Both the position numbers and the translations under genes were made by a program. A DNA stretch of 64,000 bases from an uncultured Gemmatimonadaceae bacterium (lineage in GTDB: Bacteria > Gemmatimonadota > Gemmatimonadetes > Gemmatimonadales > GWC2-71-9), in the NCBI GenBank assembly GCA_964449145.1, contig CAYUYF010000006.1, forward strand, positions 2,847 to 66,846. Reading direction: 5' to 3'. The notes below the pieces were generated by a model. The model was not told where the DNA came from. It ran no database searches and worked only from the letters and a program-made list of their open reading frames with translations. Shown here piece by piece: positions 27,930 to 63,692 of the stretch. Positions within the stretch are counted from its first letter, which is position 1; the number at the start of each line of letters is the position of its first letter.

Positions 27930-27944
27930 GCAATCGCTGTGCCC
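27930..27944 (-). promoter_or_regulatory. Candidate sigma54 promoter for the flgF-...-csrA operon
   Basis: The minus strand reads GGGCAC-AGCGA-TTGC-C. The -12 element lies about 32 nt upstream of flgF ATG 27898, with AGAGGTG as the RBS in the leader. Confidence 0.55.
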
Positions 27945-38465: not shown

Positions 38466-38480
38466 GCAACCGGCGTACCA
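38466..38480 (-). promoter_or_regulatory. Weaker sigma54-like promoter candidate for the fliL-...-fliA operon
   Basis: The minus strand reads TGGTAC-GCCGG-TTGC-C, with one mismatch in the -24 box, about 60 nt upstream of fliL ATG 38404. Confidence 0.35.
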
Positions 38481-50756: not shown

Positions 50757-50771
50757 GCAATCGCGGTGCCG
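50757..50771 (-). promoter_or_regulatory. Candidate sigma54 promoter for the flgB-...-flgE operon
   Basis: The minus strand reads CGGCAC-CGCGA-TTGC-T with GG-N10-GC spacing. It shares the GGCAC-NGCGA-TTGC layout of the flgF candidate. Confidence 0.55.
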
Positions 50772-51124: not shown

Positions 51125-52573
51125 CTAGTTGGAGGACTCGCTGGCGGCGGAGACTTCCTTGGGTGAGTTGAGCTTGTTGCGGAGGGTCCGCTCGCTGATA
51201 CCGAGCAGTTTGGCGGCCCGAGTGCGATTGCCGCCGGTGGCGACCAGCGCACGCCCGATGGCCACGCGTTCCAGCTCATCGAGGTTGAAGGCATCGGTCG
51301 GTCCGGCGGGCGAGTCCGCCTGGGGGGCGTTGCTGCTGGCAACGAGCGATGCGACCGTGGCCGGGCGCGCAGCGGTCCCCGGGAACACCCCCGGCCGGGC
51401 ACTCATCGCGTCGAGGATGCCCTGGAAGGCCTCGGCGCGCAACACCCCGCCGCGAGAGAGGATGACCCCGCGCTCGACGGCGTTCGCCAATTCTCTCACG
51501 TTGCCGGGCCACACGTGGCGAAGCAGCAACTCGATGGCCTCCGGTGCCACCCCGGTGACGGTGACACCGATATCCTCGGCAGCGCGGCGGGCAAAGTGCT
51601 GCACCAGCGTCGGGATGTCGTCGAGCCGGTCGCGGAGAGGCGGCGTGCGGATCGGCACGACATTGAGACGGTAGAACAGGTCGGTACGGAAGCGGCCGGC
51701 ATCGGCCTCGGTCTTGAGGTCGCGATTGGTGGTGGCGACGAGCCGGACATCCACCCGGATGGCCTGATGCCCGCCGACCCGTTCGAACTCATGCTCCTGG
51801 ATCACCCGCAGCAGCTTCGACTGCAGATCCAGTCGCATCTCGGAGATCTCATCCAGCAGCAGCGTGCCGCCGTGCGCCCGTTCAAAGGCGCCCGCGGTCC
51901 GCATGGTGGCGCCGGTAAACGCGCCCTTCTCATGCCCGAACAGGGCGCTCTCGACCAGGCCCTCCGGCATGGCAGCGCAGTTCATGGAGATGAACGGACC
52001 GTCGCGCCGGGGGCTCTGGTCGTGGATGGCGCGCGCGAACAGCTCCTTGCCGGTGCCCGACTCTCCCTCCAGCAGCACCGTGGCCTTGGTGGGTGCCACG
52101 GTGGCAATGGTCTCCATGACGCGGCGGAACTGGGGGCTCTCTCCCACAAGGGCCCGGGTCGAACGGAACTTGTTGATCTCGCGACGGAACTGCTCGTTTT
52201 CTCTCCGCAGCCGCATGACCTCCAGCGCCTGCGTCACGGCGATCTCCAGCGTCTCGGGACGCACCGGCTTGGTCAGGTAGTCAATGGCCCCGGACTTAAT
52301 GGAGATCACGGCATGCTCGATACTGGAGTAGCCGGTCATGATGATCACGGGGACCTGGTAGCCCTCCTTCTCCAGCATGCCGAGCAGGTCCAGCCCGGTG
52401 GCCTTGGGCATCCGGTAGTCGGCAATGATCAGGTCAATGGGGGTCCGGGTGACGGTCTTGAGGGCCTCCTCGACGCTGGAGGCGAGCAATGGCCGGTGCC
52501 CGATTTTGGTGAGGTGATGTTCCAGCACGACGCCGGTGGCCGGTTCGTCGTCTACGCACAGGATAGTAGCCAT
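51125..52573 (-). CDS. Sigma54-dependent response regulator (NtrC family; FlrC/FleR/FlbD-like flagellar activator)
   Basis: REC (ILCVDDEP...IADYRMPKATG...TKP), an AAA+ domain with GESGTGKE and GAFTGA, and a C-terminal Fis-type HTH (GNRTRAAKLLGISERTLRNKL). Start set at ATG 52573. Confidence 0.93.
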   Translation of the reverse strand: MATILCVDDEPATGVVLEHHLTKIGHRPLLASSVEEALKTVTRTPIDLIIADYRMPKATGLDLLGMLEKEGYQVPVIIMTGYSSIEHAVISIKSGAIDYLTKPVRPETLEIAVTQALEVMRLRRENEQFRREINKFRSTRALVGESPQFRRVMETIATVAPTKATVLLEGESGTGKELFARAIHDQSPRRDGPFISMNCAAMPEGLVESALFGHEKGAFTGATMRTAGAFERAHGGTLLLDEISEMRLDLQSKLLRVIQEHEFERVGGHQAIRVDVRLVATTNRDLKTEADAGRFRTDLFYRLNVVPIRTPPLRDRLDDIPTLVQHFARRAAEDIGVTVTGVAPEAIELLLRHVWPGNVRELANAVERGVILSRGGVLRAEAFQGILDAMSARPGVFPGTAARPATVASLVASSNAPQADSPAGPTDAFNLDELERVAIGRALVATGGNRTRAAKLLGISERTLRNKLNSPKEVSAASESSN

Positions 52574-52712
52574 GTCCCCCAACCCGCTCCGAGAGGATAG
52601 TTGACAGCCCCCACACCCCAAGACGGCCGCCTATATAAGAGGAAGGCTGTCGGCAGGGGGGACCGACGAGCGCCTGGCGTGTCGATTTGGGTCTGGGTCC
52701 AACGGTCTGGCC

Positions 52713-52740
52713 TAAAGTCTGCCTCCAATGTAGCCGATAC
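52713..52740 (+). promoter_or_regulatory. Candidate sigma28 promoter for flgL-fliW(-glycosyltransferase)
   Basis: TAAAGTCT-N12-GCCGATAC, about 34 nt upstream of flgL ATG 52774. Confidence 0.6.
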
Positions 52741-52773: not shown

Positions 52774-53646
52774 ATGCGGATCTCCAATAGCCTGCTCCAA
52801 CAGAATGTCCTGCGTCAGCTCCAAGGCAATCTGTCCCAGCTCGCCGAGGCCCAGGCCCAGGCGGCCTCGGGCAAGCGATTCGACCGGATGAGCCAGGACC
52901 CCATCGCCGGCACCCAGGTCCTGACGGCGGACCGGGGCCTGCGCGCCATCGACCAGTACCGGCGGAATACCATCGCCGCGCGCTCCCGGACCGACGCCGA
53001 GGAGTCTGTCCTGGGCCAGATCACGGACCTCCTTGCCCGGGCCAAGGAACTCGCCCTCCAGGAGGGGTCTGCGGGCGGCACCGCCATGACCCGGGCGGCC
53101 GCGCGGACGGAAGTGGACCGGATTCTGGAACAGGTGGTCGCCCTGGGCAACACCCAGGTCGGCACCGAATACCTGTTTGCGGGTCACCAGGTGTCCACCC
53201 AGCCGTTCGACGGCGCCGGCGCCTACTGGGGCGACGACGGGCAGCGCAATGCGGAGATCGGCCGCGACTACCGGATGGTGACCAACCACACCGGCCGGGA
53301 GCTCCTCGTCACCAGCGGGGTCATCTCCAGCCTGCAGGCGCTCAGCACCGAGCTGGGCAACGGCAACCCGCCCGCCATCGGCCTGACCGCGTTCGCGCTC
53401 GACAGCGCCTTCAACGCCACCCAGACGCTGCTCGTCACCAACGGCGCCCGGGTGCGCCAGATCGACACCGCCATGCAAAACTCCGACGCGCTGGAGACCA
53501 GCCTGATCCTGCGCCGCAGCGAGGCCCAGGACATCGACCTCGAGGCGGCGACGACCCACTTCGTGGGAGTGCAGAACACGCTGCAGGCGGCGCTGCTCTC
53601 CGCCTCGCGCGTGTTGAGCACCACGCTCACCGATTATCTCCGGTGA
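52774..53646 (+). CDS. flgL: Flagellar hook-associated protein 3 FlgL
   Basis: N-terminus MRISNSLLQQNVLRQLQGNLSQLAEAQAQAASGKRFDRMSQDP, and a flagellin-like C-terminus. Start moved from TTG 52687 to ATG 52774. Confidence 0.88.
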   Translation: MRISNSLLQQNVLRQLQGNLSQLAEAQAQAASGKRFDRMSQDPIAGTQVLTADRGLRAIDQYRRNTIAARSRTDAEESVLGQITDLLARAKELALQEGSAGGTAMTRAAARTEVDRILEQVVALGNTQVGTEYLFAGHQVSTQPFDGAGAYWGDDGQRNAEIGRDYRMVTNHTGRELLVTSGVISSLQALSTELGNGNPPAIGLTAFALDSAFNATQTLLVTNGARVRQIDTAMQNSDALETSLILRRSEAQDIDLEAATTHFVGVQNTLQAALLSASRVLSTTLTDYLR

Positions 53647-54107
53647 CCGCGCCCGTCCAGGAGACGGCCCGGCCAGCGGCCTTCGTGGTCGCGTCCCGGC
53701 TCTTCGGCCCGCTGTCCATCCACCCCGACAACGTCCTGGTCATGCCGGAGGGCATGCTCGGCTTCGCCGGGGAGCGGCGTTTTGTGCTGCTCCCCGCCGC
53801 GCCGGAGGGTGTGTTCTGGCTGCAGAGCGTGGACGACGGTGCGCTCATCTTCCTGCTGGTGGATCCCTTCCGGTTCTTTCCCGGGTATGAGGTGGACTCG
53901 CCCGATATACCGGACGCCGGTCCGGCGGAAGGAGTGGCGGTCCTGACCATCGTGACCCTGCCTCGCGGGAGGGGGGAGCCCTGCACCGCCAACCTGCAGG
54001 GCCCGCTCGTGCTGCAGACGCCGGCGCACATCGTCCGCCAGGTCCTCCTCGAGGATCCGCGGTATCACACCCGGCACGAGCTGGACCTGCGGAGCCAGTT
54101 GCAGTGA
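53643..54107 (+). CDS. fliW: Flagellar assembly factor FliW (CsrA antagonist)
   Basis: The FliW pattern FGPLSIHPDNVLVMPEGMLGF...FVLL...FWLQSVDD...FLLVDPF...NLQGPLVL. The GTG start overlaps the flgL stop (GTGA). Confidence 0.9.
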   Translation: MTAPVQETARPAAFVVASRLFGPLSIHPDNVLVMPEGMLGFAGERRFVLLPAAPEGVFWLQSVDDGALIFLLVDPFRFFPGYEVDSPDIPDAGPAEGVAVLTIVTLPRGRGEPCTANLQGPLVLQTPAHIVRQVLLEDPRYHTRHELDLRSQLQ

Positions 54108-55393
54108 CGGCCGGCTCGGCGACCCGGCAGCCCAGGGACTCGAGTGCCCGCCTCGGTTCCGCGGTGACGCACCAGGTCGCCGAGCCGCCGACTCGCCGGC
54201 CCGCCGACTCGCCGCTCATTATTGACTGGGAACTCTCCACCTCCCACGGCTGGGGCATCTTCGGCCTCAACCTCGCCCTGCAGCTGGTCAGGCAGGGCCG
54301 GGGCCTGCCGGCCCTCCTCCTGCCACCCGATCTGCGCGACGCCTCACCACTGGTGCAGGCGCTCCTCCAGGAGGTGGCGAGCACCCAGCCGGTCCTCGGT
54401 CGCATCCTGACCGACGCCGGGCCGCATGTGGTCGACACCGACTATCCCGCCCTCCGGGGCCTGGGGCCCGGCCTCGAGCCCAGGCCCGCGAGCGTCCAAC
54501 TGCGTAGCTCACGGAATGCCGGCATGACCTTTCTGGAGGACACGGAGGTCTCGGCCCGCGCCCGCGGCTGGGGGAACGCCTTTGATGTGCTCATCGCCGG
54601 GTCCCGCTGGACCGGGGCCCTGCTGGAAGCCAGCGGGATCCGCAATGTCCGGATCGCGCAGCAGGGCATCGACCCGGCCGTCTTTCATCCCGGTCCAGGG
54701 TCGGGGCTGCTGGAGGGGCGATTCGTGGTCTTCTCTGGCGGCAAGCTGGAATACCGCAAGGGCCAGGACCTGGTGGTGGCGGCTTTCCGCATCTTCGTGC
54801 AGCAGCATCCCGAAGCGCTGCTTGTCGCGGCCTGGCACAACCCCTGGCCGCACACGGCGGTTGGCGTGGACCGCATGGAGCATGTCCGCGGCCTGCCGGC
54901 GCCCAACGGCGCCGGCGGTCTGGCCATCGGTCCCTGGCTGGTGGCCAACGGCCTGCCGGCCGAGAACGTACTCGTGCCCGGTCCCATGCCGAACATGGCC
55001 ATGGGACCGCTCCTCCGCGATGCCGACCTGGCGGTCTTTCCCAATCGCTGTGAAGGTGGCACCAACCTGGTGGCCATGGAGGCGATGGCGACCGGTGTGC
55101 CATGCATCCTGTCGGCCAATACCGGCCATCTCGACCTGATCCAGGAGGACCACTGCCATCCGCTCACGCTGCAGCGGCCGGTAGCCGGGGGTTGTCCGCT
55201 GTATCGCGGGTACGAGGGGTGGGGGGAGTCCGATATCGGCGAGATGGTCGAGCTGATGGAGCGGGTGTACACCCACCGGGCGGAGGCGCGCGCTCGTGCC
55301 GCACGGGCGGCGGAGTGGATGCTGCGCGAGTGGACCTGGGAGGCCCGCATGACGGACCTGCTGGACCTCCTGACCGAGCACGACATCCTCTGA
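54104..55393 (+). CDS. GT-B fold glycosyltransferase (group 1/GT4-like)
   Basis: C-terminal nucleotide-sugar domain VVFSGGKLEYRKGQDLVV...FPNRCEGGTNLVAMEAMATGVPCI. The GTG start overlaps the fliW stop (GTGA); the true start could lie further downstream. Confidence 0.85.
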   Translation: MTAGSATRQPRDSSARLGSAVTHQVAEPPTRRPADSPLIIDWELSTSHGWGIFGLNLALQLVRQGRGLPALLLPPDLRDASPLVQALLQEVASTQPVLGRILTDAGPHVVDTDYPALRGLGPGLEPRPASVQLRSSRNAGMTFLEDTEVSARARGWGNAFDVLIAGSRWTGALLEASGIRNVRIAQQGIDPAVFHPGPGSGLLEGRFVVFSGGKLEYRKGQDLVVAAFRIFVQQHPEALLVAAWHNPWPHTAVGVDRMEHVRGLPAPNGAGGLAIGPWLVANGLPAENVLVPGPMPNMAMGPLLRDADLAVFPNRCEGGTNLVAMEAMATGVPCILSANTGHLDLIQEDHCHPLTLQRPVAGGCPLYRGYEGWGESDIGEMVELMERVYTHRAEARARAARAAEWMLREWTWEARMTDLLDLLTEHDIL

Positions 55394-55406
55394 GCCCACA
55401 CCCGCC

Positions 55407-56651
55407 TCAGGAAAAGAGCAGCAGTTCCTCCCGCGCGGCAAACTCGAAGAACCGGCCAAGGTGACCCAGTTGCTCGGCCGGGCCCGCCCCGGGCACCGCC
55501 GCGGCGACCTCAGGAATTCCCAGCAACTCCATCGCCGTCCGGGTGCCGTCGCACCAGGCCAGCACCGGCTGCGCCCACCCCTCCAGCGTGAGCGCAATCC
55601 GGGGTCCCTCGGTGGCCCAGTGCGGCAGGACCCAGACCGTTATCGGACGGCCTTCGACTGAGCGCTGCTCAAGGCGGCCCGAGCCCCAGTCAAAGAACAC
55701 CATGGGCCTCGGCCGCTGGCGGAGGAGCACCGACCGGACCGGTGGGAGCCGCAGCGGCCGGTAGCCCGCCGCCGTCACGAAACAGCGGTGCTGAGTCATG
55801 TTCCCGTGCAGCAACTCGGCCACCCGTGGCTTTTCTTCGGCGGGCAGCGCGGAGAGCTGGGCGTGCAGTGGCCCCCGGGTCAGGTACCGTTCGGGTTCGT
55901 AGGCCGGCGGCGCAAACCACCGCTCCAGCCTGAGCCCCGCCTGCACGATCAGCTCTTGCAGCTCCATGACGGTGAAGCTCACGTCATGGGGGTGCAGCAG
56001 GAGGTCGGCGATGCCGGCGTCACCCTGCCAGTCGTGCTCGCTCCATCTGGAGGGCTGGTACGGGTGACTGGGCGGAAGGCCCTGGACCAGTTCGCGGGCC
56101 AGGCCGATCCGTTCGTCGAGCTCCGCCCCCTGCGCGACCCGCCGCAGCAGCTCCTGCAGCAGGTACACTGCCTGGCGCCCGTGAGTCGCGTAGACCATCA
56201 GGCCCATGCCCCCACGCGCTGCCAGCAGGCCGGCCAGGCGCCGGGCGCCGGCCAGCGGATCCTGGAGGTGGTGCAGGACGCCGGCACAGATGATGTAGTC
56301 GAATGGCCCTTGAGCGGTCGGTGCCTCGATGCTGCCGTGACAGAATCGGATCCGGCCCCCAACCCCTTCCCGCCGGGCTCGCTCCCGGGCAACCTCGAGA
56401 GAGGCCTCACTCAGGTCCATCCCGGTGACCTGCACCCCGGGGAAGTCGCGTGCGAGGCGCACCACCGTATGACCGGTCCCGCAGCCGGCGTCCAGCACCC
56501 GGAGACCGTCAAGGCCGTCGCGCTCCGGCCACAGCACGTGCCGGACGTAATCCATCGCCGCGAAGACCGGGTAGCCGGCCGCGGCGCCGTCGGGGGGGTA
56601 CGGGTAGCGTTCGTAGAGCGCGCGGACAGCGCCTTGTACCGAGGCGCTCAC
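55407..56651 (-). CDS. Class I SAM-dependent methyltransferase with an unassigned C-terminal domain
   Basis: SAM motif I VLDAGCGTGH and the post-I/II pattern. About 200 further residues carry no motif I recognise. Confidence 0.8.
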   Translation of the reverse strand: MSASVQGAVRALYERYPYPPDGAAAGYPVFAAMDYVRHVLWPERDGLDGLRVLDAGCGTGHTVVRLARDFPGVQVTGMDLSEASLEVARERARREGVGGRIRFCHGSIEAPTAQGPFDYIICAGVLHHLQDPLAGARRLAGLLAARGGMGLMVYATHGRQAVYLLQELLRRVAQGAELDERIGLARELVQGLPPSHPYQPSRWSEHDWQGDAGIADLLLHPHDVSFTVMELQELIVQAGLRLERWFAPPAYEPERYLTRGPLHAQLSALPAEEKPRVAELLHGNMTQHRCFVTAAGYRPLRLPPVRSVLLRQRPRPMVFFDWGSGRLEQRSVEGRPITVWVLPHWATEGPRIALTLEGWAQPVLAWCDGTRTAMELLGIPEVAAAVPGAGPAEQLGHLGRFFEFAAREELLLFS

Positions 56652-58027
56652 GCCCGCAGGAACAGCAGATTGAAGGTGCCCTCACCACCGAGGCTCTGGT
56701 CATCCGCCAGCGGGGTCACGCCGGTCGCATCCGGGTTGAGCAGAGCTGCCTGGTAGCCGATCAGCCGCATGAACCCGCGCAGGTGCGCCTCACTGGCGCC
56801 TTTGCGGATCAGGGCGGCGCAGTCAAGCTCGCAGATGATGAACGGGACCTCGTGAGCCATGATGGTCCGGAGTGCACCCTTGAGAATCTCGTACTCCGAT
56901 CCCGGGGCGTGAATCCGGATCAGTCGGAGGCCCCGCGCCGGTGCCGCCTCGCCGAGCACCCCGTCGAGGGTAACCACCTCCACACCGCCGTTGCTCCCTG
57001 CAATGGCGCCGACCGCCGCCGGCCAGGCTCGGACCTGGCCAAGGCCGTTCAGCTCCAGGTGTTCTTGGAGCCGGCGGAATCCGCCCGCCGCTGGCTCGAA
57101 GGCGTAGACCACACCGGAAGCGCCGACGACCCGGCCTGCGATCGCGCTGAAGTAGCCCGCTTCCGCCCCGACGTCCGCGACGGCGTCGCCAGGCTCCAGG
57201 ACGTTGGTCAGGAAATAGGCGACCTCCGGCGCGTGGAATCCGCCGGCCTCGACCGCATCGAGGATGGCCCGCTCCCGGTCCACCCCACGGTCGAGGCGCA
57301 GTTCCAGGTGCCTCGACGCACCCTGCACCTCGAACCCGAGCGACAGTGTTTTCATGCCAGCGGCATTCATCCTGGGTGGTGCTTCGGCTCCCCCGAGCCG
57401 GCAGATGAAACCAAGGTAGACGTCCGGACCTGCGCCGGTCTCATGATTGATGTGAAAGGCCTCCAGCACGCCGAACCCGGCCCGGGTGAGCAGCGCCAGC
57501 CACGCGTTCTGACCCAGCACCGAGTAGTGATTCGGGTTCCACTCGTGCCGGCAAGCCGTGTCGGGAGCGGGCACCTCGACATACAGGAACCCACCCGGCG
57601 CCAGCACCCTGCGGAATTCCGCCAGAGTGAAACAGGGCGCGATGCTGTGCTCAAGGCAGTGACGGCACCAGACCAGGTCGAACTCGCCCGGGGAGAACTC
57701 CAGGAATGACTGGTCCATACGGCGAGCGTCATGGCCAAGCCGGGTGCAGGCGGACAGGTCCTCCTCGCTGAGGGTCACCCCCACCGCGTTCAGGCCCGCC
57801 TCCCGGAAGCCGGCCAGGCCTACGCCCTGCCCACAACCGACATCGAGTACCCGGGCGCCTGATGGAAACCCGGCGGCGGCCCGGACCCGCTCCCACGCCC
57901 GGCGGGAGATCTCCTCATGGCCAGCGGAAGGCGGTTCGGGATAGACGTCCCGGGCAATCCGATCGAGGAACGCGTCGAGGCGATCGTAGCGGCGGCGGGT
58001 GTCCGCCGGTGGGCTATCGGTGCGCAC
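56648..58027 (-). CDS. Fused double methyltransferase (class I SAM MTase + FkbM-type MTase)
   Basis: N-terminal half has VLDVGCGQGV...LVWCRHCLEH. C-terminal half has VADVGAEAGYFS...YAFEP, which is FkbM-like. Its stop overlaps the downstream gene's start. Confidence 0.8.
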   Translation of the reverse strand: MRTDSPPADTRRRYDRLDAFLDRIARDVYPEPPSAGHEEISRRAWERVRAAAGFPSGARVLDVGCGQGVGLAGFREAGLNAVGVTLSEEDLSACTRLGHDARRMDQSFLEFSPGEFDLVWCRHCLEHSIAPCFTLAEFRRVLAPGGFLYVEVPAPDTACRHEWNPNHYSVLGQNAWLALLTRAGFGVLEAFHINHETGAGPDVYLGFICRLGGAEAPPRMNAAGMKTLSLGFEVQGASRHLELRLDRGVDRERAILDAVEAGGFHAPEVAYFLTNVLEPGDAVADVGAEAGYFSAIAGRVVGASGVVYAFEPAAGGFRRLQEHLELNGLGQVRAWPAAVGAIAGSNGGVEVVTLDGVLGEAAPARGLRLIRIHAPGSEYEILKGALRTIMAHEVPFIICELDCAALIRKGASEAHLRGFMRLIGYQAALLNPDATGVTPLADDQSLGGEGTFNLLFLRA

Positions 58028-60130
58028 TCAGCGGACTCCGGCCTCAGGCATGATCGCCGCACCGAGTTCTTGCCGTACCTGCTCGATCACACTGGCCCAG
58101 TCGCCCGGCTTCGGCTGACGGAAGAGCCGCGCCGTGGGATACCACACGCTGTCACCCGCCTGGCCATTCCAGCGCCAGTCGGGCGCGGCGCTGAGCAGCA
58201 CCCAGCAGTCCAGCGCAAGCCCGCCGGCCAGGTGCGCGACGGATGTGTCAATGGAGATCACCAGGTCGAGCTGGCCGGCGAGGGCCGCGGTGTCGGCAAA
58301 GTTGTGAATCAGCGGAGAGAGGTCGATCACCTTCTCTCGGGCCGGATGCTGGGCCAGCTGGGCGGCGTGCTCCCCGACTTGCAGGGAGTACCAGGTCACT
58401 CCCGGCAGGGTAAAGAGGGGGGCGAGCTGGTCCAGGGGGATGCTGCGCCGGGGATTTGGCTTGTGTGAACCGCCCCAGACGAGCCCGATCCGCAGCCCAT
58501 CGCCCGGGGGCAGGACGGGGATCTTGGCCGACCAAGCCTGCGCAGGCAGGTAGGGGACACGATTGGGGACCATGGTCAGCCGGGTGCCAAAGAGATGCGG
58601 CAGCGACAGCAACGGGACATGGCAGTGGAACTCCGGCAGCGGCTCACCCTGCGCCACCGCGAAGGACACTGACGGCATCGCCTCCAGAAGCCGCTTGAGC
58701 GAGGGCTGGCATTCCAGTACGACCCGCCCGCCCCGCTCCGCCACCAGCGGGAGGTAGCGCACAAACTGCAGCGTATCGCCGAGGCCCTGCTCGCAGTGTA
58801 CCAGGATGGTCCGGCCATCGAGCGGTCCGCCGTTCCAGCGCGGGACCCCGAACTCCCGTGGCTTGAGTCCGATGTCCCCCACCAGCCAGCGCCACTCGTA
58901 CCCTTTCCACCCTTCCTCGTAGTCCCCGGCGGCCAGCAGGGCCAGCCCGCGGTTCCACTCAGCGGGGGCGTATCCGGGTTCGAGCTGACGGGAACGGTCG
59001 AAGGCCGCCACGGCCTCCTGGGTGCGGCCCTCTTCCTGGAGGGCATTGCCAAGATTGTACCAGGCCCGGCTGAACTCGGGCTTGAGTTCCAGTGCGCGGC
59101 GGTAGGCGGTGATCGCTTCTGACGGGCGGTCCAGCTGCATGAGGGTTGCCCCGAGGTTACTGAACGCATCGGCAAAATCGGACTTGAACGACAGGGCGGC
59201 CCGGTAGCTGGCCATCGCCTCCGTCGGCTTCTCCAGCTCGCCGAGGAGGACCCCGAGGTTGAAATGCGCCTCGGCATAGTCCGGCCGGGCCACCAGCGCC
59301 TGCCGATAGGCCGATTGCGCCTGATCCAGATAGCCCAGCGACTTGCAGACGTTCCCCATGTGGTTGTGCGCGTCGGGATTGACCGGGTCCAGGGCCAGGG
59401 CGGCCTGCAGCGCGTCGGCAGCGGGGTGGAAGCGGCCAGCCTCCCACAAGGCGGAGCCCAGGTTGCAGTAGGCCCCGGTAAAGGCGGGGTCGAGCGACAC
59501 TGCGCGCTCGTAGGCGGCGATGGCCTCTTCCAGCCGGCCCGCGTCGCGAAGCGCGTTGCCACACTGGTCGTGGGCGGCCGCGAACTCGGGCCGGGCCCGG
59601 ATGGCGGCTTCGAAACTCGCCAGCGCCTCCTCCCCGCGTCCGAGTTGCCGCAGCACGATGCCCTGATTCAGATGGGCCTCGGCAAAGCCCGGCTGGCGCT
59701 TGATCGCCTCCTGGTACGCCAGCAGAGCCTCGGGCGTCCGGCCCAGGTCCCGCAGGGCGTTACCCAGGTTTCCCCACGGGAGCGGGTTGGCCGGAGCCAG
59801 CGTGATGGCCTCCCGGTAGGCCGCGACGGCGTCGTCGGTACGGCCGAGGGCCCGCAGCACGTTGCCCCGGTTTGAGTGGGCATCGGCAAAGGTGGCGGAG
59901 CGGGCCAGCGCCTTGTCAATCAGCTCCAGCGCTTCCAGCGCCCGGCCGCCCTGGAACGCCAGCACCCCAGCCAGATGCAGGGCATCCGGATGATCGGGGA
60001 CCAGCTCCAGCACCTGCCGATAGATGGGTGCGGCCTCGCCGAGGCGGCCCGACTGGTGATACTGGACCGCGGTGCGCAGCAGGTTGCCCACCTCATCGGG
60101 GTGTGGGCGCTGCCTGGCGAGTGTGGACAT
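58028..60130 (-). CDS. TPR-repeat protein fused to a GT9-fold (heptosyltransferase-like) glycosyltransferase domain
   Basis: About 400 aa of TPR-like repeats (repeated A..Y..AL...P....A..NLG), then EQGLGDTLQFVRYLP...GLVWGG...FADTAALAGQLDLVISIDTSVAHLAGGL...DWRW. ATG 60130 follows GGAGG at 7 nt. Confidence 0.85.
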   Translation of the reverse strand: MSTLARQRPHPDEVGNLLRTAVQYHQSGRLGEAAPIYRQVLELVPDHPDALHLAGVLAFQGGRALEALELIDKALARSATFADAHSNRGNVLRALGRTDDAVAAYREAITLAPANPLPWGNLGNALRDLGRTPEALLAYQEAIKRQPGFAEAHLNQGIVLRQLGRGEEALASFEAAIRARPEFAAAHDQCGNALRDAGRLEEAIAAYERAVSLDPAFTGAYCNLGSALWEAGRFHPAADALQAALALDPVNPDAHNHMGNVCKSLGYLDQAQSAYRQALVARPDYAEAHFNLGVLLGELEKPTEAMASYRAALSFKSDFADAFSNLGATLMQLDRPSEAITAYRRALELKPEFSRAWYNLGNALQEEGRTQEAVAAFDRSRQLEPGYAPAEWNRGLALLAAGDYEEGWKGYEWRWLVGDIGLKPREFGVPRWNGGPLDGRTILVHCEQGLGDTLQFVRYLPLVAERGGRVVLECQPSLKRLLEAMPSVSFAVAQGEPLPEFHCHVPLLSLPHLFGTRLTMVPNRVPYLPAQAWSAKIPVLPPGDGLRIGLVWGGSHKPNPRRSIPLDQLAPLFTLPGVTWYSLQVGEHAAQLAQHPAREKVIDLSPLIHNFADTAALAGQLDLVISIDTSVAHLAGGLALDCWVLLSAAPDWRWNGQAGDSVWYPTARLFRQPKPGDWASVIEQVRQELGAAIMPEAGVR

Positions 60131-60174
60131 CGGGCTGCCTCCAACGAGACGGGCGGGTAGTGCTGGGGGCAAAG

Positions 60175-60189
60175 GCAATGCGGAGGCCA
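60175..60189 (-). promoter_or_regulatory. Weak sigma54-like promoter candidate for the TPR-GT/methyltransferase operon
   Basis: The minus strand reads TGGCCT-CCGCA-TTGC-C, with 2 mismatches in the -24 box and a perfect -12. The -12 element lies about 45 nt upstream of ATG 60130. Confidence 0.3.
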
Positions 60190-60341
60190 CGGGACGACGG
60201 CGGCGCGGTCAGCCCCTCGGTTGCCAGCTAACACCATACGTGTCAAGGGCTTGCATCCGTGACACCGACCTTGGCCCTGAGCCCTTGAGCCCGGGGCCCT
60301 GCGGCCCCCAGACGCCTCACCGGCAGGAACCTCCGCCCCCG

Positions 60342-60377: not shown

Positions 60378-60404
60378 TCAAGTCTTCGAGCGGACCGCCG
60401 ATAC
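60378..60404 (+). promoter_or_regulatory. Sigma28 (FliA) promoter of the flagellin gene
   Basis: TCAAGTCT-N11-GCCGATAC against the consensus TAAAGTTT-N11-GCCGATAA. The -10 element lies about 80 nt upstream of the fliC ATG. Confidence 0.65.
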
Positions 60405-60485: not shown

Positions 60486-61628
60486 ATGTCACGCATCAAC
60501 ACCAACGTCGCCGCCAACAACGCGTACAAGAACCTGAACGCCACTTCAGGCATGCTGGAGAAGTCCATCCAGAAGCTGTCGAGTGGGTTCCGGATCAATC
60601 GTTCCGCGGACGACGCCGCCGGCCTCGCGATCGCCAACAAGCTCCGTTCCGATGTGCGCTCGCTGATGCAGGCGTCGCGGAATGCGAGTGCGGCGAACTC
60701 GATGCTGCAGGTCGCGGACGGCGCCATCAACACCGTGGCGACCATCCTCGACCGCATGAAGGAACTGGCCTCGCAGGCCAACTCGGCCAATGTCGGCGCC
60801 CAGGCGGACAAGCTGCAGGCGGAGTTCACCTCGCTGCTGTCGGAAATCGACCGGATCGCCGCGACCACGACCTACAACGGCACCGCGCTCACCAACGGCG
60901 GCTTCGGTTCCGGGCTGGACAAGACGGCCTCGACCGCGTGGACCACGGCCGGCGCCAACATCGCGGACATCCAGCTCAACGGCACCGCGGTCGGCACCTA
61001 CACCTTTGCCTCCGCGGCCGCGACCGCGACGCTGACCCGCACCGCGGACGCGGTTTCGCAGGTCGTGACCGGCATCAGCGCCACGGCGCGTTCCAGCGTG
61101 AACTTCTCCACGTTCGGCATCAACGTTGAGGGGTCGGCGGGTTGGGTCGGCGCCGCAGGCGCCAATACCACGACCATCGTCGTGACTGCCGGCACCAGCG
61201 GCTCGTTCATGGTGAGCTCCAGCGGCAACTACGGTTCCAGCGACCTGGTCTCGGTGAGCGGGATCGACGTCCGGTCCAGCCAGGCCACCGGCCTTGACCT
61301 GGGCTCGGGCGGCTTCAACCTGGCGACCGCGCTGCTGAGCGCGACCAACGCCCAGGGCGCCCTGAGCCGGATCGATACCGCGATCGACAAGCTCGCGACG
61401 TCGATCGGCACGGTGGGTGCCGCGCAGAGCCGGATCGAGTTCGCCTCCACCAACGTGGCCAACCTGATCCAGAACACCGCGGCCGCCGAGTCGGTCATCC
61501 GCGATGCCGACATGGCGTTCGAAATGACCGTGTTCACCAAGTACCAGATCCTGCAGCAGGCCGGCACGGCGATGCTGGCGCAGGCCAACCAGGTTCCGCA
61601 GTCGATCCTGACCCTGCTGCGCGGCTGA
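60486..61628 (+). CDS. fliC: Flagellin
   Basis: N-terminus MSRINTNVAANNAYKNLNATSGMLEKSIQKLSSGFRINRSADDAAGLAIANKL; C-terminus TKYQILQQAGTAMLAQANQVPQSILTLLRG. The central region is Ser/Thr-rich. ATG 60486 follows AGGAG. Confidence 0.95.
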   Translation: MSRINTNVAANNAYKNLNATSGMLEKSIQKLSSGFRINRSADDAAGLAIANKLRSDVRSLMQASRNASAANSMLQVADGAINTVATILDRMKELASQANSANVGAQADKLQAEFTSLLSEIDRIAATTTYNGTALTNGGFGSGLDKTASTAWTTAGANIADIQLNGTAVGTYTFASAAATATLTRTADAVSQVVTGISATARSSVNFSTFGINVEGSAGWVGAAGANTTTIVVTAGTSGSFMVSSSGNYGSSDLVSVSGIDVRSSQATGLDLGSGGFNLATALLSATNAQGALSRIDTAIDKLATSIGTVGAAQSRIEFASTNVANLIQNTAAAESVIRDADMAFEMTVFTKYQILQQAGTAMLAQANQVPQSILTLLRG

Positions 61629-61730: not shown

Positions 61731-63692
61731 ATGGACTCTTCCAGCGCAATCTCCGGTCTGATCAGCGGCATCCAGTACCGCGATCTGGTGGACCAGATCA
61801 TTTCGGTGGAGAGCCGTCCGGCCCAGGCCGCGCGCGATCGCGCCACCCGGCTCCGGAACCAGCAGGCGGCCATCAAGACATACCGGGGCCTGCTGACCTC
61901 GCTGCAGACGGCGGCCAAGGCGCTGCGCGACGGCTCCGCGTTCGACGCGATGAGCACCTCCTCCGCGATCGCCGCGGGCTCCAGGACGCTGGTCACTGGC
62001 AGCGCCACGGCCAATGCTTCCCCCGGCAGCTACAACATCAGCGTCACCTCCGCGACCCTGGCGCAGGCCCAGAAACTGGGATCCGTTGGCCAGGCCAGCG
62101 TCACCGGCCCGCTCGGGTTTGCCGGCACGTTTGACCTCAACGGCCAGACGGTGACCCTCGTCGCGACGGACTCGCTGGTGGAGGTCCGCGACAAGATCAA
62201 TGCCCTCAACACGGGCACGAGCGCCACCAAGGTGAGCGCCTCGATTCTCTCCGTCGGCGCCACCAGCCACAAATTGGTGCTGACCAGCCAGACCACCGGC
62301 GCGGCCGGAATGACTCTCAGCGACACCGCCGGTTCGGCGCTGCAGTCGCTCGGCTTGCTCTCAAACCCGACCACGATCGATCCCACCGCCGTGCTCCAGG
62401 CCGGCGCGGATCTCAGTTTCACGATTGACGGCGTGGCGTTTACCCGGACTACCAACACCGTCAGCGACGCCATTGACGGGGTCACCCTGAACTTCTCCGG
62501 CGCCGAACCCGGAGCTGTGACCCGGCTCTCGGTGGAGCGATTCCTGGAGGGCGCCCGCGGCAGCATCCAGGCCGTCGTGGAGGCCTACAACAAGGTGGTG
62601 GACTTCCTCAAGGAACAGGGGACCAGCGATCCGGAAGCGACCACCCGGCCCGCACTCTACGGGGACACCCTGATCCGCACCATGCGCAGCCGGCTGCCCC
62701 AGCTGATGCTCACGACGATCGGCGCCGCCCCGGCCGACCTCAACCGACCCGGCCTGGCCGGTGTGGCGCTGGACAGCACCGGCAAGCTGACCTTCGACTC
62801 CACCAAGTTCGACGCCGCATTCCAGGATCGGCTCGCCGATGTGCGGCACCTGTTTCAGCAGACCGGCACCGCCACCGGCACGGGGCTCACCTATATCTCG
62901 AGCACGATCGACAGCAAGGCCGGCAGCTACGCGGTGGACATCACCCAGCTCGCCACCCAGTCGAGCGTCACCGGCGCGGGGCTCGCCGGCGGGGTCTACA
63001 GCGATGACGGCACCCCCGACACCATGACGGTCACCGATACCCGGATGGGGAAATCGGTCAGCATTGCGCTCAGCAACGGAATGACATCCGCGCAGATCGT
63101 GGCGGCGTTGACCTCGGCGTTCGGGACCGCCGGCCTCGGGCTGACCGCCACCGACGTGGGCGGGCAGGTCCAGATCACCCAGGTCGGCTACGGCTCCGCC
63201 GCCGGCATCACCGTGGAATACGCCGCCGGCGGCACTCAGGGGTCGGACCCCATCGCCGCAGCCACGTACGCCGACGGCTTGGACATCGCCGGGACCATTG
63301 GCGGCCTGGCGGCCACAGGGTCGGGCCAGGTGCTGCTGGGCAGCAGCGGGACCGACGCCGCCGGGATCGCGGTGCGGTATGACGGGGCCAGCCTTGGCGT
63401 CGCAGGGGACACTACCGTGGATCTCGGCACCGGGGCGGAGCTGGAGCGCCTGGTGACGGCCTTTGTCCAGAGCAACTCGGGGTTCGTCTCCCTGCGGGAG
63501 ACCTCCCTGGCAGAGAACATCCTCCGGCAGGAGGAACGCGCGGACAACATCGATGCGCGGCTGGCCATCCGGCGCAGCTCGCTGCTGGTGCAGTTTGCGC
63601 GCATGGAATCCGCCCTGGCGCAGTTCCAGAGCCAATCGCAGTCCGTGACCGCCATCCTGGGAGCCCTGAATCAGGGCGGAGGCAGCGCGTGA
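61731..63692 (+). CDS. fliD: Flagellar filament cap protein FliD
   Basis: N-terminus ISGLISGIQYRDLVDQIISVESRPA; C-terminus RRSSLLVQFARMESALAQFQSQ. 653 aa. Confidence 0.92.
   Translation: MDSSSAISGLISGIQYRDLVDQIISVESRPAQAARDRATRLRNQQAAIKTYRGLLTSLQTAAKALRDGSAFDAMSTSSAIAAGSRTLVTGSATANASPGSYNISVTSATLAQAQKLGSVGQASVTGPLGFAGTFDLNGQTVTLVATDSLVEVRDKINALNTGTSATKVSASILSVGATSHKLVLTSQTTGAAGMTLSDTAGSALQSLGLLSNPTTIDPTAVLQAGADLSFTIDGVAFTRTTNTVSDAIDGVTLNFSGAEPGAVTRLSVERFLEGARGSIQAVVEAYNKVVDFLKEQGTSDPEATTRPALYGDTLIRTMRSRLPQLMLTTIGAAPADLNRPGLAGVALDSTGKLTFDSTKFDAAFQDRLADVRHLFQQTGTATGTGLTYISSTIDSKAGSYAVDITQLATQSSVTGAGLAGGVYSDDGTPDTMTVTDTRMGKSVSIALSNGMTSAQIVAALTSAFGTAGLGLTATDVGGQVQITQVGYGSAAGITVEYAAGGTQGSDPIAAATYADGLDIAGTIGGLAATGSGQVLLGSSGTDAAGIAVRYDGASLGVAGDTTVDLGTGAELERLVTAFVQSNSGFVSLRETSLAENILRQEERADNIDARLAIRRSSLLVQFARMESALAQFQSQSQSVTAILGALNQGGGSA

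Follow-up and report, generated by a model that had tools for sequence, protein, structure and literature searches.

A putative flagellin-modification island with an FlmG-like TPR-glycosyltransferase beside the flagellin gene of a soil Gemmatimonadales bacterium

Results

Four enzyme genes lie between fliW and fliC

The window (the whole 64-kb stretch of DNA analysed) comes from a soil bacterium of the Gemmatimonadales, and in it an island spanning 54104-60190 sits between the flagellin-chaperone gene and the flagellin gene, bounded by flgL-fliW and by fliC (Table 1), while the rest of the window consists of chemotaxis and flagellar genes. The gap between fliW and fliC holds exactly four long open reading frames of coding-type composition (GC3 0.81-0.86, GC2 about 0.5), such that an earlier reading made from the letters alone (the sequence-only reading), which saw four enzyme genes and nothing else here, is upheld.

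Table 1. Genes and features of the island and its flanks, in window coordinates.
Feature	Position	Strand	Basis
FlbD-like sigma54-dependent response regulator	51125..52621	-	synteny, phmmer
Sigma28-type promoter-like site 5' of flgL-fliW-GT4	52713..52740	+	pattern scan
flgL, hook-associated protein 3	52774..53646	+	TIGR02550, 177.8 bits, above cut-off
fliW, flagellin chaperone / CsrA antagonist	53643..54107	+	Pfam FliW, 94 bits
GT4-type glycosyltransferase	54104..55393	+	Pfam Glycos_transf_1
MT1, Rv2067c/PKMT-family methyltransferase	55407..56651	-	PDB profile, AF2/structure match
MT2, class-I SAM + FkbM-type methyltransferase	56648..58027	-	Pfam/NCBIfam
TPR-CTD, FlmG-like TPR-glycosyltransferase, 700 aa	58028..60130	-	BLASTP vs FlmG, orthologues
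TPR domain of TPR-CTD, about 11 repeats	58979..60130	-	Pfam TPR families
C-terminal GT-B (GT9-like) domain of TPR-CTD	58031..58978	-	AF2, Foldseek, motifs
Sigma54-type promoter-like element 5' of TPR-CTD	60175..60189	-	motif invariant across orthologues
Sigma28-type promoter-like site 5' of fliC	60378..60404	+	pattern scan
fliC flagellin, 380 aa, presumed substrate	60486..61628	+	Pfam Flagellin_N + Flagellin_C
fliD filament cap (context)	61731..63692	+	Pfam FliD_N + FliD_C

Orthologues support several of the gene starts. The true flgL start is ATG 52774 (orthologues 289-290 aa), and fliC has a ribosome-binding site (AGGAGA) ahead of ATG 60486. The fliW stop overlaps the GTG start of GT4 in the letters GTGA (54104-54107), as previously described; the identical 4-bp overlap is called in two homologous loci (L001 and L005), and close GT4 orthologues span 100% of its 429 aa, which supports the start. 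The mechanical TPR-CTD frame extends to GTG 60190; ATG 60130 is the likely start, giving 700 aa that match orthologue lengths. TPR-CTD abuts MT2 (0 bp) and MT2 overlaps MT1 by 4 bp, so these three genes look like a single operon. No transmembrane segments or signal peptides were predicted in any of the four enzymes, and such a soluble set would fit cytoplasmic modification ahead of type III export.

Promoter-like sites of two flagellar sigma-factor classes

Pattern scanning found a putative sigma28-type site 5' of flgL (TAAAGTCT-N12-GCCGATAC), which bears out, as a promoter-like site, the earlier description of flgL-fliW as sigma28-driven, and the same extended motif 5' of fliC (TCAAGTCT-N11-GCCGATAC). 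The TPR-CTD gene does not belong to this sigma28 class but has its own conserved sigma54-type promoter: TGGCC-N6-TTGC lies about 45 nt upstream of ATG 60130, and its GG and TTGC (-24/-12) do not vary among the six orthologous upstream regions compared, although the surrounding letters are otherwise only 47% identical. The FlbD-like regulator is a candidate activator of this promoter, with syntenic counterparts (Response_reg, Sigma54_activat, HTH_8) in L001, L002, L004 and L005 (phmmer E down to 1e-265).

TPR-CTD is a homologue of FlmG with a GT9-like fold

The N-terminal part of TPR-CTD carries TPR repeats at about aa 30-420 (Pfam families with up to 238 bits), and the closest PDB sequence match of this domain is the TPR of OGT. 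The GT9 family of Pfam (PF01075) scored below threshold on the protein (E=0.17, 11.6 bits, cut-off 22), yet the AF2 model of the C-terminal domain shows a GT-B fold with high confidence (pLDDT 92.7), and its top Foldseek matches are the GT9 structures 3tov, 1psw, 2h1h and 4rb4 (TibC), such that the GT9 fold proposed in the sequence-only reading is borne out by modelling and structure search, though not by Pfam. Paralogues and relatives do pass the Pfam cut-off (L001 25.2 bits, L032 24.6 bits). The domain contains the motifs EQGLGD and IDTSVAHLAG, and EQGLGD and D-T-S-x-x-H are kept in at least 90% of its family (alignment A4); the corresponding WaaC residues are D13, D261, T262 and H266, and the D-T-x-x-x-H residues of WaaC contact heptose hydroxyls and the alpha-phosphate. 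With its best structural matches, WaaC/WaaF and the TibC/AAH-type enzymes (2h1h, 1psw, 4rb4), TPR-CTD has in common both D-T-x-x-x-H and the catalytic Asp after Gly in the first beta-alpha loop; it differs from them in a compact N-lobe, a fused TPR targeting domain and an identity of only 10-14%. WaaC is a peripheral-membrane enzyme acting on LPS, and TibC, which forms a dodecamer and carries an iron finger, demonstrates that a GT9 fold can O-heptosylate protein Ser residues.

We compared TPR-CTD by BLASTP with the Caulobacter vibrioides FlmG sequence, located via a primer in the supplement of an eLife paper, and obtained a collinear alignment (E=1e-36, 28% identity across 494 aa) that runs from the final TPRs through the entire C-terminal domain. 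FlmG is both required and sufficient for the glycosylation of flagellin, which its TPR domain binds in BACTH assays (PMC7591256). On this alignment TPR-CTD is a collinear homologue of the proven flagellin O-glycosyltransferase, and FlmG, which had been cited as a mere TPR-bearing analogue, has the same C-terminal domain family; by analogy the TPR domain of TPR-CTD is presumed to be a flagellin-binding module. FlmG of Caulobacter crescentus and Brevundimonas subvibrioides (PMC7591256; bioRxiv 10.1101/2022.03.25.485807) likewise joins N-terminal TPRs to a C-terminal GT-B domain with EQGLGD, falls below the Pfam GT9 threshold (E=0.16-0.17 for the two proteins), and is soluble, cytoplasmic and encoded beside flagellin genes. 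FlmG had, however, been regarded as restricted to Caulobacterales (bioRxiv 10.1101/2023.12.03.569772), and TPR-CTD comes from a different phylum, is only 25-28% identical, is the longer protein (700 vs 596 aa) with an extended TPR array of about 11 repeats, and has GT4, the FkbM double methyltransferase MT2 and the PKMT-like MT1 as its companions, where FlmG has the FlmH acetyltransferase and pse genes.

The C-terminal domain of TPR-CTD is 45-50% identical to generic family members, far above the 25-28% to FlmG, an observation that counts against a role in flagellin glycosylation.

Motifs suggest that the donor is not a nonulosonic acid

Where the window enzyme carries D-T-x-x-x-H, FlmG has S-N-A-T-I-N. 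TPR-CTD retains ADP-heptose-holding GT9 residues that are missing from FlmG, so the donor of TPR-CTD is probably ADP-heptose-like or another NDP-sugar and not CMP-pseudaminic or CMP-legionaminic acid, as judged from the alignment of three residues and a profile match to WaaC that is weak (E=0.28). The motifs therefore support the earlier expectation that the chemistry differs from well-studied systems. That no pse or leg genes are nearby also proved correct, with neither these nor other sugar-nucleotide genes among the 38 proteins scanned in the window, but pse genes are scattered away from flmG in Caulobacter too, so their absence from 64 kb says little. The same architecture and target could accordingly be combined with canonical FlmG chemistry, in which pse/leg genes elsewhere supply Pse or Leg and the methyltransferases decorate it, as the only characterised relative uses one of these sugars. 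We consider this unlikely, though not negligible: besides lacking a motif that TPR-CTD shares with 90% or more of the family, FlmG is the divergent member (25% identity vs 42-51% among the others), and a single nonulosonate transfer needs no GT4 partner.

Accessory enzymes and the flagellin

The first enzyme matches Pfam Glycos_transf_1 (47.9 bits, C-terminal half only) and GT4-conflict (46.4 bits), in agreement with its earlier GT4-like assignment. Its orthologues adjoin fliW in L001, L005 and L007, and in three of four distant loci (L041, L042 and L043) a homologue of 44-47% identity is the immediate neighbour of a TPR-CTD gene. Fused or adjoining gene calls also exist, and L042 and L043 have FkbM genes close by. 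We take GT4 to have a functional link with the C-terminal domain family.

MT2 is the fused class-I SAM and FkbM-type double methyltransferase that had been proposed, with domains at aa 43-187 (Methyltransf_23, 73 bits) and aa 283-426 (Methyltransf_21, 28.5 bits; TIGR01444, 53.6 bits, cut-off 37.7), and has orthologues in L001, L005 and L007.

MT1 is indeed a class-I SAM methyltransferase (Pfam, aa 40-165), whereas its supposedly unassigned C-terminal domain belongs to a full-length homology with Mycobacterium tuberculosis Rv2067c (8HKR) and Rickettsia PKMT1/PKMT2, whose catalytic, dimerisation and C-terminal domains it has at 25-26% identity. The family profile matches 8HKR over its full length (E=3e-69; single sequence E=8e-31), and the AF2 model (pLDDT 94.4) superposes on 8HKR with TM 0.72-0.77 and on PKMT1/2 with TM 0.62-0.67; other structure matches span the catalytic domain alone. 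MT1 is thus probably a protein (lysine) methyltransferase and not a sugar methylase, so that protein, not sugar, is probably the target of at least some of the methylation. PKMT1/2 multiply methylate the surface protein OmpB, a parallel to methylation of a filament protein by MT1, although known members of this family are not flagellar and distant MT1 homologues are found in unrelated contexts. Salmonella FliB, a flagellin lysine N-methylase, is presumably a functional analogue, being a methyltransferase encoded next to fliC that acts on flagellin; Pfam/NCBIfam scans gave no match of MT1 to the FliB-type family. Salmonella flagellin is rich in surface lysines, whereas the flagellins studied here are poor in lysine, with hardly any in the variable domain, and so fit badly as targets of a lysine methylase.

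The Ser/Thr enrichment noted in the flagellin centre is real (29% vs 22% in the whole protein), but it is ordinary for flagellins and weak evidence alone. The protein carries the invariant motif F-M-V-S-S-S-G-N-Y, with VSSSG invariant in an alignment of seven flagellins.

TPR-CTD is kept beside fliC while its C-terminal domain family is widespread

TPR-CTD occupies the fliW-fliC position in seven Gemmatimonadota loci (the window, L007, L001, L005, L002, L004 and L043) with orthologues of 697-711 aa. In L002 and L004 no other gene lies in that gap, which makes TPR-CTD the core of the island. The position has been kept though the orthologues are only 53-59% identical, and more distant relatives in another lineage show the order flgE-flgK-flgL-x-TPR-CTD (L029/L032), such that the linkage of TPR-CTD to flagellar genes expected from the sequence-only reading was found. 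Island content otherwise differs among relatives, and GT4, MT1 and MT2 are restricted to genomes whose flagellins are long (350-380 aa).

The C-terminal domain family itself is huge (about 35,000 50%-identity clusters at E<=1e-10) and mostly non-flagellar, as in the majority of 30 metagenome loci sampled, so membership alone implies no flagellin target. Away from flagellar loci it again accompanies these GT4 and FkbM enzymes, for example in a Microcoleus cyanobacterium (L041) and in L042; Azospirillum lipoferum has a cassette of the same enzyme classes; and L003 retains an intact TPR-CTD orthologue next to flbD and fliA after the loss of fliC, fliW and the structural genes. These cases, with the variable island content, would suit a general TPR-guided glycosylation/methylation cassette with a non-flagellin target (perhaps a different protein of the flagellum or cell surface, or a glycoconjugate), for which the fliC side is a tolerated insertion hotspot. 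We find this improbable given the position kept at such low identity, with TPR-CTD standing there alone in two loci, the flagellar classes of the promoters, the translational coupling of GT4 to fliW and the homology to a proven flagellin enzyme; the Azospirillum accessory enzymes, moreover, are not orthologous to the window's.

The place between fliW and fliC, the protein-binding nature of TPR domains and the retention in L003 with only two regulators might also suggest that TPR-CTD mainly regulates or holds flagellin, like the GmaR anti-repressor or a FliW-CsrA partner, with its GT-B domain secondary or inactive. To this we give very little credence, since the catalytic and donor-binding motifs are kept at 90% or more over tens of thousands of relatives, sugar- and methyl-transferase partners are co-encoded, and a Pfam scan of TPR-CTD revealed no DNA-binding or anti-sigma features.

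Discussion

Every computational test available supports reading the locus as an island for flagellin O-glycosylation and methylation with a TPR-GT9-fold transferase at its centre, and we favour, with a probability of roughly 0.63, a cytoplasmic flagellin-modification island with an FlmG-like TPR-GT-B core, GT4 and methyltransferase accessories and a non-nonulosonate donor. From gene content, folds, homologies, synteny and promoter-motif conservation we infer each reaction, its acceptor and donor, and the sequence in which the enzymes act, as follows. TPR-CTD would be transcribed from its sigma54-type promoter, probably dependent on the nearby FlbD-like activator, and thus before the sigma28-class fliC and flgL-fliW-GT4, so that the transferase would be present once flagellin appears. 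Its TPR superhelix may capture unfolded or chaperoned flagellin before export, as in FlmG, and the GT9-like GT-B domain would then move a sugar from a nucleotide-sugar to flagellin Ser/Thr, with the Asp of the EQGLGD loop as the likely catalytic base and the invariant VSSSG-x-Y segment as a candidate acceptor site. GT4, coupled to fliW, may add or extend a second sugar, MT2 may O-methylate the glycan, and the substrate of MT1 would be a protein, for which flagellin or another component of the filament is the simplest candidate.

Maf (MAF_flag10/DUF115) and Listeria GmaR (GT2-TPR) are likewise flagellin-specific cytoplasmic O-glycosyltransferases and also include TPR modules (Maf-1, GmaR), but their catalytic fold is GT-A and not GT-B, and neither MAF_flag10 nor GT2 matched the island in a Pfam scan. 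Burkholderia cenocepacia FlmQ (BCAL0111) is a TPR-containing predicted transferase needed for flagellin glycosylation (PMC4462625, PMC2753556); its OGT/SPINDLY-like annotation suggests a catalytic domain probably of GT41 type. The island would mean that FlmG-type flagellin decoration occurs beyond the single bacterial order in which it was described, probably with a different sugar.

Gene content and expression of the island

When real genes were chosen by ORF listing combined with a codon-position GC filter, the gap between fliW and fliC in this window of about 69% G+C proved to hold four real-looking genes and no more, which upholds the count of the sequence-only reading. The identities of the flanking FlgL, FliW, flagellin and FliD were confirmed by Pfam/NCBIfam. 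The overlap of the glycosyltransferase gene GT4 with the fliW stop could be read directly from the sequence, and the three minus-strand genes, encoding the TPR-CTD protein (TPR repeats followed by a C-terminal domain, CTD) and the methyltransferases MT2 and MT1, abut or overlap one another. All four products lack a transmembrane segment or signal peptide. There are no pse/leg genes in the 64 kb, in line with the earlier remark that none lie nearby, and a scan of 30 further window proteins returned chemotaxis, flagellar or unmatched proteins and no sugar-nucleotide genes.

Coordinates of the features in the window and, where a locus or replicon is named, in comparison loci
Feature	Coordinates	Strand	Basis or description
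GT4	54104-55393	+	ORF; Glycos_transf_1 C-lobe
MT1	55407-56651	-	ORF; class-I SAM domain (Pfam/NCBIfam)
MT2	56648-58027	-	ORF; class-I + FkbM fusion (Pfam/NCBIfam)
TPR-CTD	58028-60190 (mechanical ORF); likely ATG at 60130	-	ORF; ~400 aa of TPR repeats (Pfam)
fliW stop and GT4 start	54104-54107		shared GTGA
flgL start	52774
fliC start	60486		ATG 3' of AGGAGA
sigma54-type element 5' of TPR-CTD	60175-60189	-	TGGCC-N6-TTGC
sigma54-type element, flgB region	50757-50771	-	GG-N10-GC
sigma54-type element, 37859-38404 gene	38466-38480	-	GG-N10-GC
sigma54-type element, 27197-27898 gene	27930-27944	-	GG-N10-GC
Stretch within flagellar cluster	41825-43913		~2 kb, no ORF passing GC3/GC2 coding filter
Flagellin motif	61209-61235		FliC aa 242-250
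MT1 C-terminal ~100 aa	55407-55720	-	W-x-x-x-D-G-x-R-T
L003 locus (JGI Ga0673031_0000046)	L003:10001-15085		TPR-CTD, then directly flbD, fliA
L003 FlgL remnant	L003:12167-12223		19 aa
Microcoleus GT4 homologue (P0288)	L041:8001-9707		fused to or directly 3' of TPR/GT9 giant
L042 cassette	L042:2939-9236		GT4 fused to or directly 3' of TPR/GT9 giant; FkbM gene close
Giant repeated-CTD gene	L041:22-7938
A. lipoferum 4B plasmid AZO_p6 cluster (L045)	243925-268866		five TPR proteins
Ralstonia solanacearum megaplasmid homologue	L046:9449-11041		530-aa TPR-CTD homologue

Sigma28-like promoter motifs lie 5' of flgL (TAAAGTCT-N12-GCCGATAC) and of fliC (TCAAGTCT-N11-GCCGATAC). The TPR-CTD gene is preceded by a sigma54 -24/-12 signature, in which GG and TTGC are invariant and the flanks poorly conserved across an alignment of six orthologous upstream regions, and a gene for an FlbD-like sigma54 activator is found nearby. 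Because this element falls within the mechanical extension of the ORF to a GTG at 60190, it supports the ATG at 60130 as the most likely start, which would give a protein of 700 aa, the same as its orthologues. From these promoter signatures we infer that the transferase would belong to a class of flagellar gene expression that precedes that of the flagellin, and such timing would fit the early expression of glycosylation components in Caulobacter (PMC7591256).

Three further sigma54-type elements precede minus-strand flagellar operons; cross-locus conservation of such elements was checked at the TPR-CTD site only. The stretch of the flagellar cluster that contains no filtered ORF could harbor a gene of unusual composition, such as a proline-rich, fliK-like one.

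A putative flagellin glycosyltransferase homologous to FlmG

The 700-aa protein had been read from sequence as a TPR-GT9 enzyme, with the Caulobacter flagellin O-glycosyltransferase FlmG as a TPR-bearing parallel. Pfam places the TPR repeats at aa ~30-420. The last 315 aa, the CTD, score 11.6 bits against a PF01075 (GT9) cut-off of 22 (E=0.17), and a sequence search with the isolated CTD found no relative in the PDB, so that the GT9 assignment needed fold prediction; a paralogue in L001 (25.2 bits) and a relative in L032 (24.6 bits) do reach the cut-off. An AlphaFold2 model of the CTD, built on 46 homologues (pLDDT 92.7), has a GT-B fold whose Foldseek matches in the PDB are almost all GT9 (E 5e-8 to 1e-4, TM about 0.5). 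The top 28 matches are 3tov, 1psw, 2h1h, 2gt1, 6dfe and 4rap/4rb4, with the exception of 9grx at rank 19, and the best include 3tov, WaaF (1psw), WaaC (2h1h/2gt1) and the protein heptosyltransferase TibC. The GT9 label therefore stands at the level of predicted fold, although not at that of the Pfam threshold.

FlmG was retrieved through 20 bases of its gene start, known from a primer published with the eLife study of FlmG, which an exact-match scan located in C. vibrioides, where the translation equals the published 596 aa. BLASTP aligned the TPR-CTD protein collinearly with FlmG over 494 residues (E=1e-36, 28% identity), from the last TPRs across the junction and through the entire catalytic domain, and the CTD alone matched FlmG at E=1e-20 (phmmer). 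FlmG itself gives an equally sub-threshold Pfam GT9 match (E=0.16). The BLASTP match means that the likeness first offered as a parallel holds and goes further than analogy, the TPR-CTD protein being a true homologue of FlmG. For flagellin O-glycosylation FlmG is both required and sufficient, and it binds the flagellin through its TPR domain (PMC7591256). Homology and modelled fold together support the core reading of a flagellin glycosylation island built around a TPR-GT9-fold transferase, and we put the probability that the TPR-CTD protein glycosylates flagellin at about 0.65-0.7.

Linkage to flagellin genes

To evaluate co-occurrence of the transferase gene with fliC and fliW in relatives, flagellin neighbors were screened by phmmer with N- and C-terminal flagellin fragments plus extra flagellar queries. 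TPR-CTD orthologues (53-89% identity) were restricted to Gemmatimonadales-type contigs, and flagellar linkage was present in seven Gemmatimonadota loci, the window included. Two loci (L002 and L004) carry the TPR-CTD gene alone between fliW and fliC, with flagellins of 278-279 aa. Two others (L001 and L005) have two TPR-CTD paralogues, a double methyltransferase and a GT4 gene overlapping fliW, with flagellins of 350-370 aa, and L007 (83% identity) has the same four genes as the window, MT1 included, and a flagellin of 380 aa. A shorter TPR-CTD gene, a GT4 gene and an FkbM fragment accompany a 364-aa flagellin in L043. Because it is kept at all of these loci, and alone in two of them, the TPR-CTD gene is the invariant core of the fliW-fliC gap; GT4, MT2 and MT1 are accessory and track long flagellins, a pattern that at n=7 is suggestive only. 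An unrelated lineage of 62% GC shows the order flgE-flgK-flgL-small ORF-TPR-CTD-PilZ, and its CTD scores above the Pfam GT9 cut-off.

A counter-example is L003, in which an intact TPR-CTD orthologue sits beside flbD and fliA, but fliC, fliD and fliW are missing and, apart from the FlgL remnant, no structural flagellar gene is left. Judging from its gene content, this lineage seems to have lost its flagellum while retaining the FlmG-like gene along with a pair of regulators.

Donor site and predicted sugar chemistry

We used MAFFT to align the CTD with FlmG, with two relatives linked to flagellar genes and with 11 diverse members of the family. The motif EQGLGD, by motif the counterpart of the Met11-Gly12-Asp13 loop of WaaC, in which Asp13 is the catalytic base (bioRxiv 10.1101/2021.06.16.448588), is kept in every aligned sequence, FlmG included. 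Across the CTD family the motif IDTSVAHLAG shows at least 90% conservation, and it matches Asp261-Thr262-Gly263-x-x-His266 of WaaC, where the Asp261/Thr262/His266 motif binds ADP-heptose at its heptose hydroxyls and its alpha-phosphate (bioRxiv 10.1101/2021.06.16.448588). At this position FlmG reads FSNATINLAG, in the BLASTP and MAFFT alignments alike. The equivalence of CTD and WaaC residues comes from these motifs and from a weak, supporting profile match to WaaC (residues 207-277, E=0.28), the sole direct sequence link, which a search of the CTD profile against the PDB returned along with TPR proteins.

With a first-loop Asp that follows Gly and a D-T-x-x-x-H motif for donor binding, the donor site of the TPR-CTD protein looks closer to canonical GT9 enzymes than that of FlmG. 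Since D-T-x-x-x-H is kept here and absent in FlmG, we see moderate evidence for an ADP-heptose-like or other NDP-sugar donor in preference to a CMP-nonulosonate. The earlier expectation that the chemistry probably departs from well-studied systems gains support from this difference in donor motif.

On the acceptor side, the motif F-[LM]-V-S-S-S-G-x-Y is invariant in 7/7 Gemmatimonadota flagellins, the short 278-aa ones included (equivalents in L001, L002, L004, L005, L007 and L043). It lies directly after the site where long flagellins hold an insertion of ~100 aa and is a candidate for a conserved glycosylation site or a structural element.

Accessory enzymes of the island

MT1 had been described as a SAM methyltransferase with an unassigned C-terminus of ~200 aa; the first part stands, and the C-terminus can now be assigned to the dimerization and C-terminal domains of the Rv2067c family. 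Its family profile matched 8HKR over the full length (E=3e-69, 7-408 against 8-396), and the single sequence matched it at E=8e-31. This structure is that of Rv2067c from M. tuberculosis, a protein lysine methyltransferase of three domains with a substrate trough similar to that of Rickettsia PKMT1/2 (PMC10739865). The AlphaFold2 model of MT1 (pLDDT 94.4) superposes on 8HKR with a TM of 0.72-0.77 (Foldseek, about 407 columns) and on PKMT1/2 with 0.62-0.67, remaining matches covering the catalytic domain only, and MT1 is thus a full three-domain homologue (catalytic, dimerization and C-terminal). Every structural relative that matches over the full length is a protein lysine methyltransferase, so a role in methylating the sugar was rejected; on homology and model, MT1 is in all likelihood a protein methyltransferase. 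Lysines number 5-12 in these flagellins and lie almost entirely in the D0/D1 helices, with hardly any in the variable core. MT1 does not represent a flagellar-specific family, as distant homologues occur in unrelated loci.

The C-terminal ~100 aa of MT1 hold a W-x-x-x-D-G-x-R-T motif common to Rv2067c, and 8HKR serves as a reference for RiPP-recognition-element (PqqD-like) folds (PMC12710340). Together these hint, by analogy, that the MT1 C-terminus might recognize an extended peptide such as a disordered flagellin terminus.

For MT2, the fused class-I SAM and FkbM double methyltransferase proposed earlier was confirmed, the FkbM half scoring above cut-off for TIGR01444 (53.6 bits vs 37.7) and PF05050 (28.5 vs 22.7), and judging from its family MT2 would carry out sugar O-methylation. 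The domain search also bore out GT4, whose C-lobe matches Glycos_transf_1 (47.9 bits, cut-off 26.4); its N-lobe has no Pfam match and GT4 has no sequence relative in the PDB. The GT4 family is tightly connected with the CTD family: several GT4 homologues carry PF01075 or TPR within one gene call, and one has a CTD C-lobe at its N-terminus (42% identity). In three of four distant loci examined, GT4 directly follows a TPR/GT9 gene (that of a 2638-aa giant in Microcoleus, of a 1679-aa protein in L042, and that of the L043 flagellar island), with FkbM genes nearby in two. The placement of GT4 beside TPR/GT9 giants in other bacteria, non-flagellated cyanobacteria among them, suggests that a TPR-GT9, GT4 and FkbM cassette is conserved independently of flagella. 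We have less confidence in the roles of GT4, MT2 and MT1, and in the kind of donor, than in flagellin glycosylation by the TPR-CTD protein.

Size and spread of the CTD family

Searching with the CTD returned 41,974 representatives of 50%-identity clusters at E<=1e-3 and 34,928 at E<=1e-10. Many proteins of 1,000-3,100 aa repeat the CTD two to six times, alternating with TPR blocks; such giants (P0361-P0507; L008, L012, L014, L016 and L041) are also encoded in tandem arrays of two or three genes. Among 30 more distant metagenome loci, most held tandem paralogues without flagellar genes, and six or seven had flagellar neighbors. Homologues at 37-52% identity also occur on replicons of cultured Azospirillum (up to 12 CTD places per replicon), Paraburkholderia, Burkholderia and Ralstonia, under NCBI names such as 'tetratricopeptide repeat(-containing glycosyltransferase family) protein'.

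Azospirillum offers a tractable cultured system for the family. In the A. lipoferum 4B cluster one of the five TPR proteins is a CTD match, and the cluster further encodes a glycosyltransferase, two class-I methyltransferases, an FkbM methyltransferase, a GT2 and an asparagine synthase. We rejected it as an orthologous parallel, as its enzymes are not orthologous to GT4 or MT2 of the window and the likeness is at class level only. The Ralstonia homologue is flanked by two diguanylate cyclase genes and is found not beside fliC but 3.6 kb downstream of fliF-fliG-fliH-fliI-fliJ-fliK.

Relation to known systems and significance

The FlmG class has been described as narrowly distributed, 'confined to the Caulobacterales' (bioRxiv 10.1101/2023.12.03.569772), and a literature search for flagellin glycosylation in Gemmatimonadota turned up no publication. 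The GT-A enzymes Maf and GmaR (bioRxiv 10.1101/2023.12.03.569772) do not match the island, and a Pfam search found no MAF_flag10/DUF115 GT-A domain in any island protein. Burkholderia FlmQ, a TPR protein annotated as OGT-like, can be likened by annotation only. With FlmG, the system described here shares architecture (TPR + GT-B), sequence homology and linkage to flagellar genes, whereas it differs in phylum, in its apparently canonical-GT9-type donor site and in its partner set, which includes a PKMT-like methyltransferase.

A bolder scenario, which we regard as tentative and rather unlikely in its entirety, is that FlmG is a divergent, sialic-acid-specialized offshoot of a huge family of TPR-guided GT9-type protein glycosyltransferases, whose members, found in non-flagellated cyanobacteria too, would typically be partnered with a specific GT4 and with FkbM methyltransferases. 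The GT4/FkbM-partnered cassette of that family would have been recruited to the Gemmatimonadales fliW-fliC gap, there to modify flagellin with a methylated glycan that is based on heptose or hexose and drawn from an ADP-heptose-like donor, with a second mark added by the Rv2067c-type protein methyltransferase. If true, this would mean new flagellin glycan chemistry and a first functional handle on the entire CTD family.

The locus places a FlmG-type design, previously thought restricted to Caulobacterales, at the flagellin gene of another phylum, and probably other soil lineages have it too. It also connects FlmG with a vast family named 'tetratricopeptide repeat proteins', and the conserved GT9 donor residues, the obligate-looking GT4/FkbM partners and the PKMT-like methylase together predict a glycan chemistry that would depart from that of the well-studied nonulosonic-acid systems. 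If confirmed, TPR-directed GT9 enzymes could represent a general bacterial route of cytoplasmic protein O-glycosylation and a modular scaffold for glyco-engineering, with the TPR for the acceptor and the GT-B domain for the donor.
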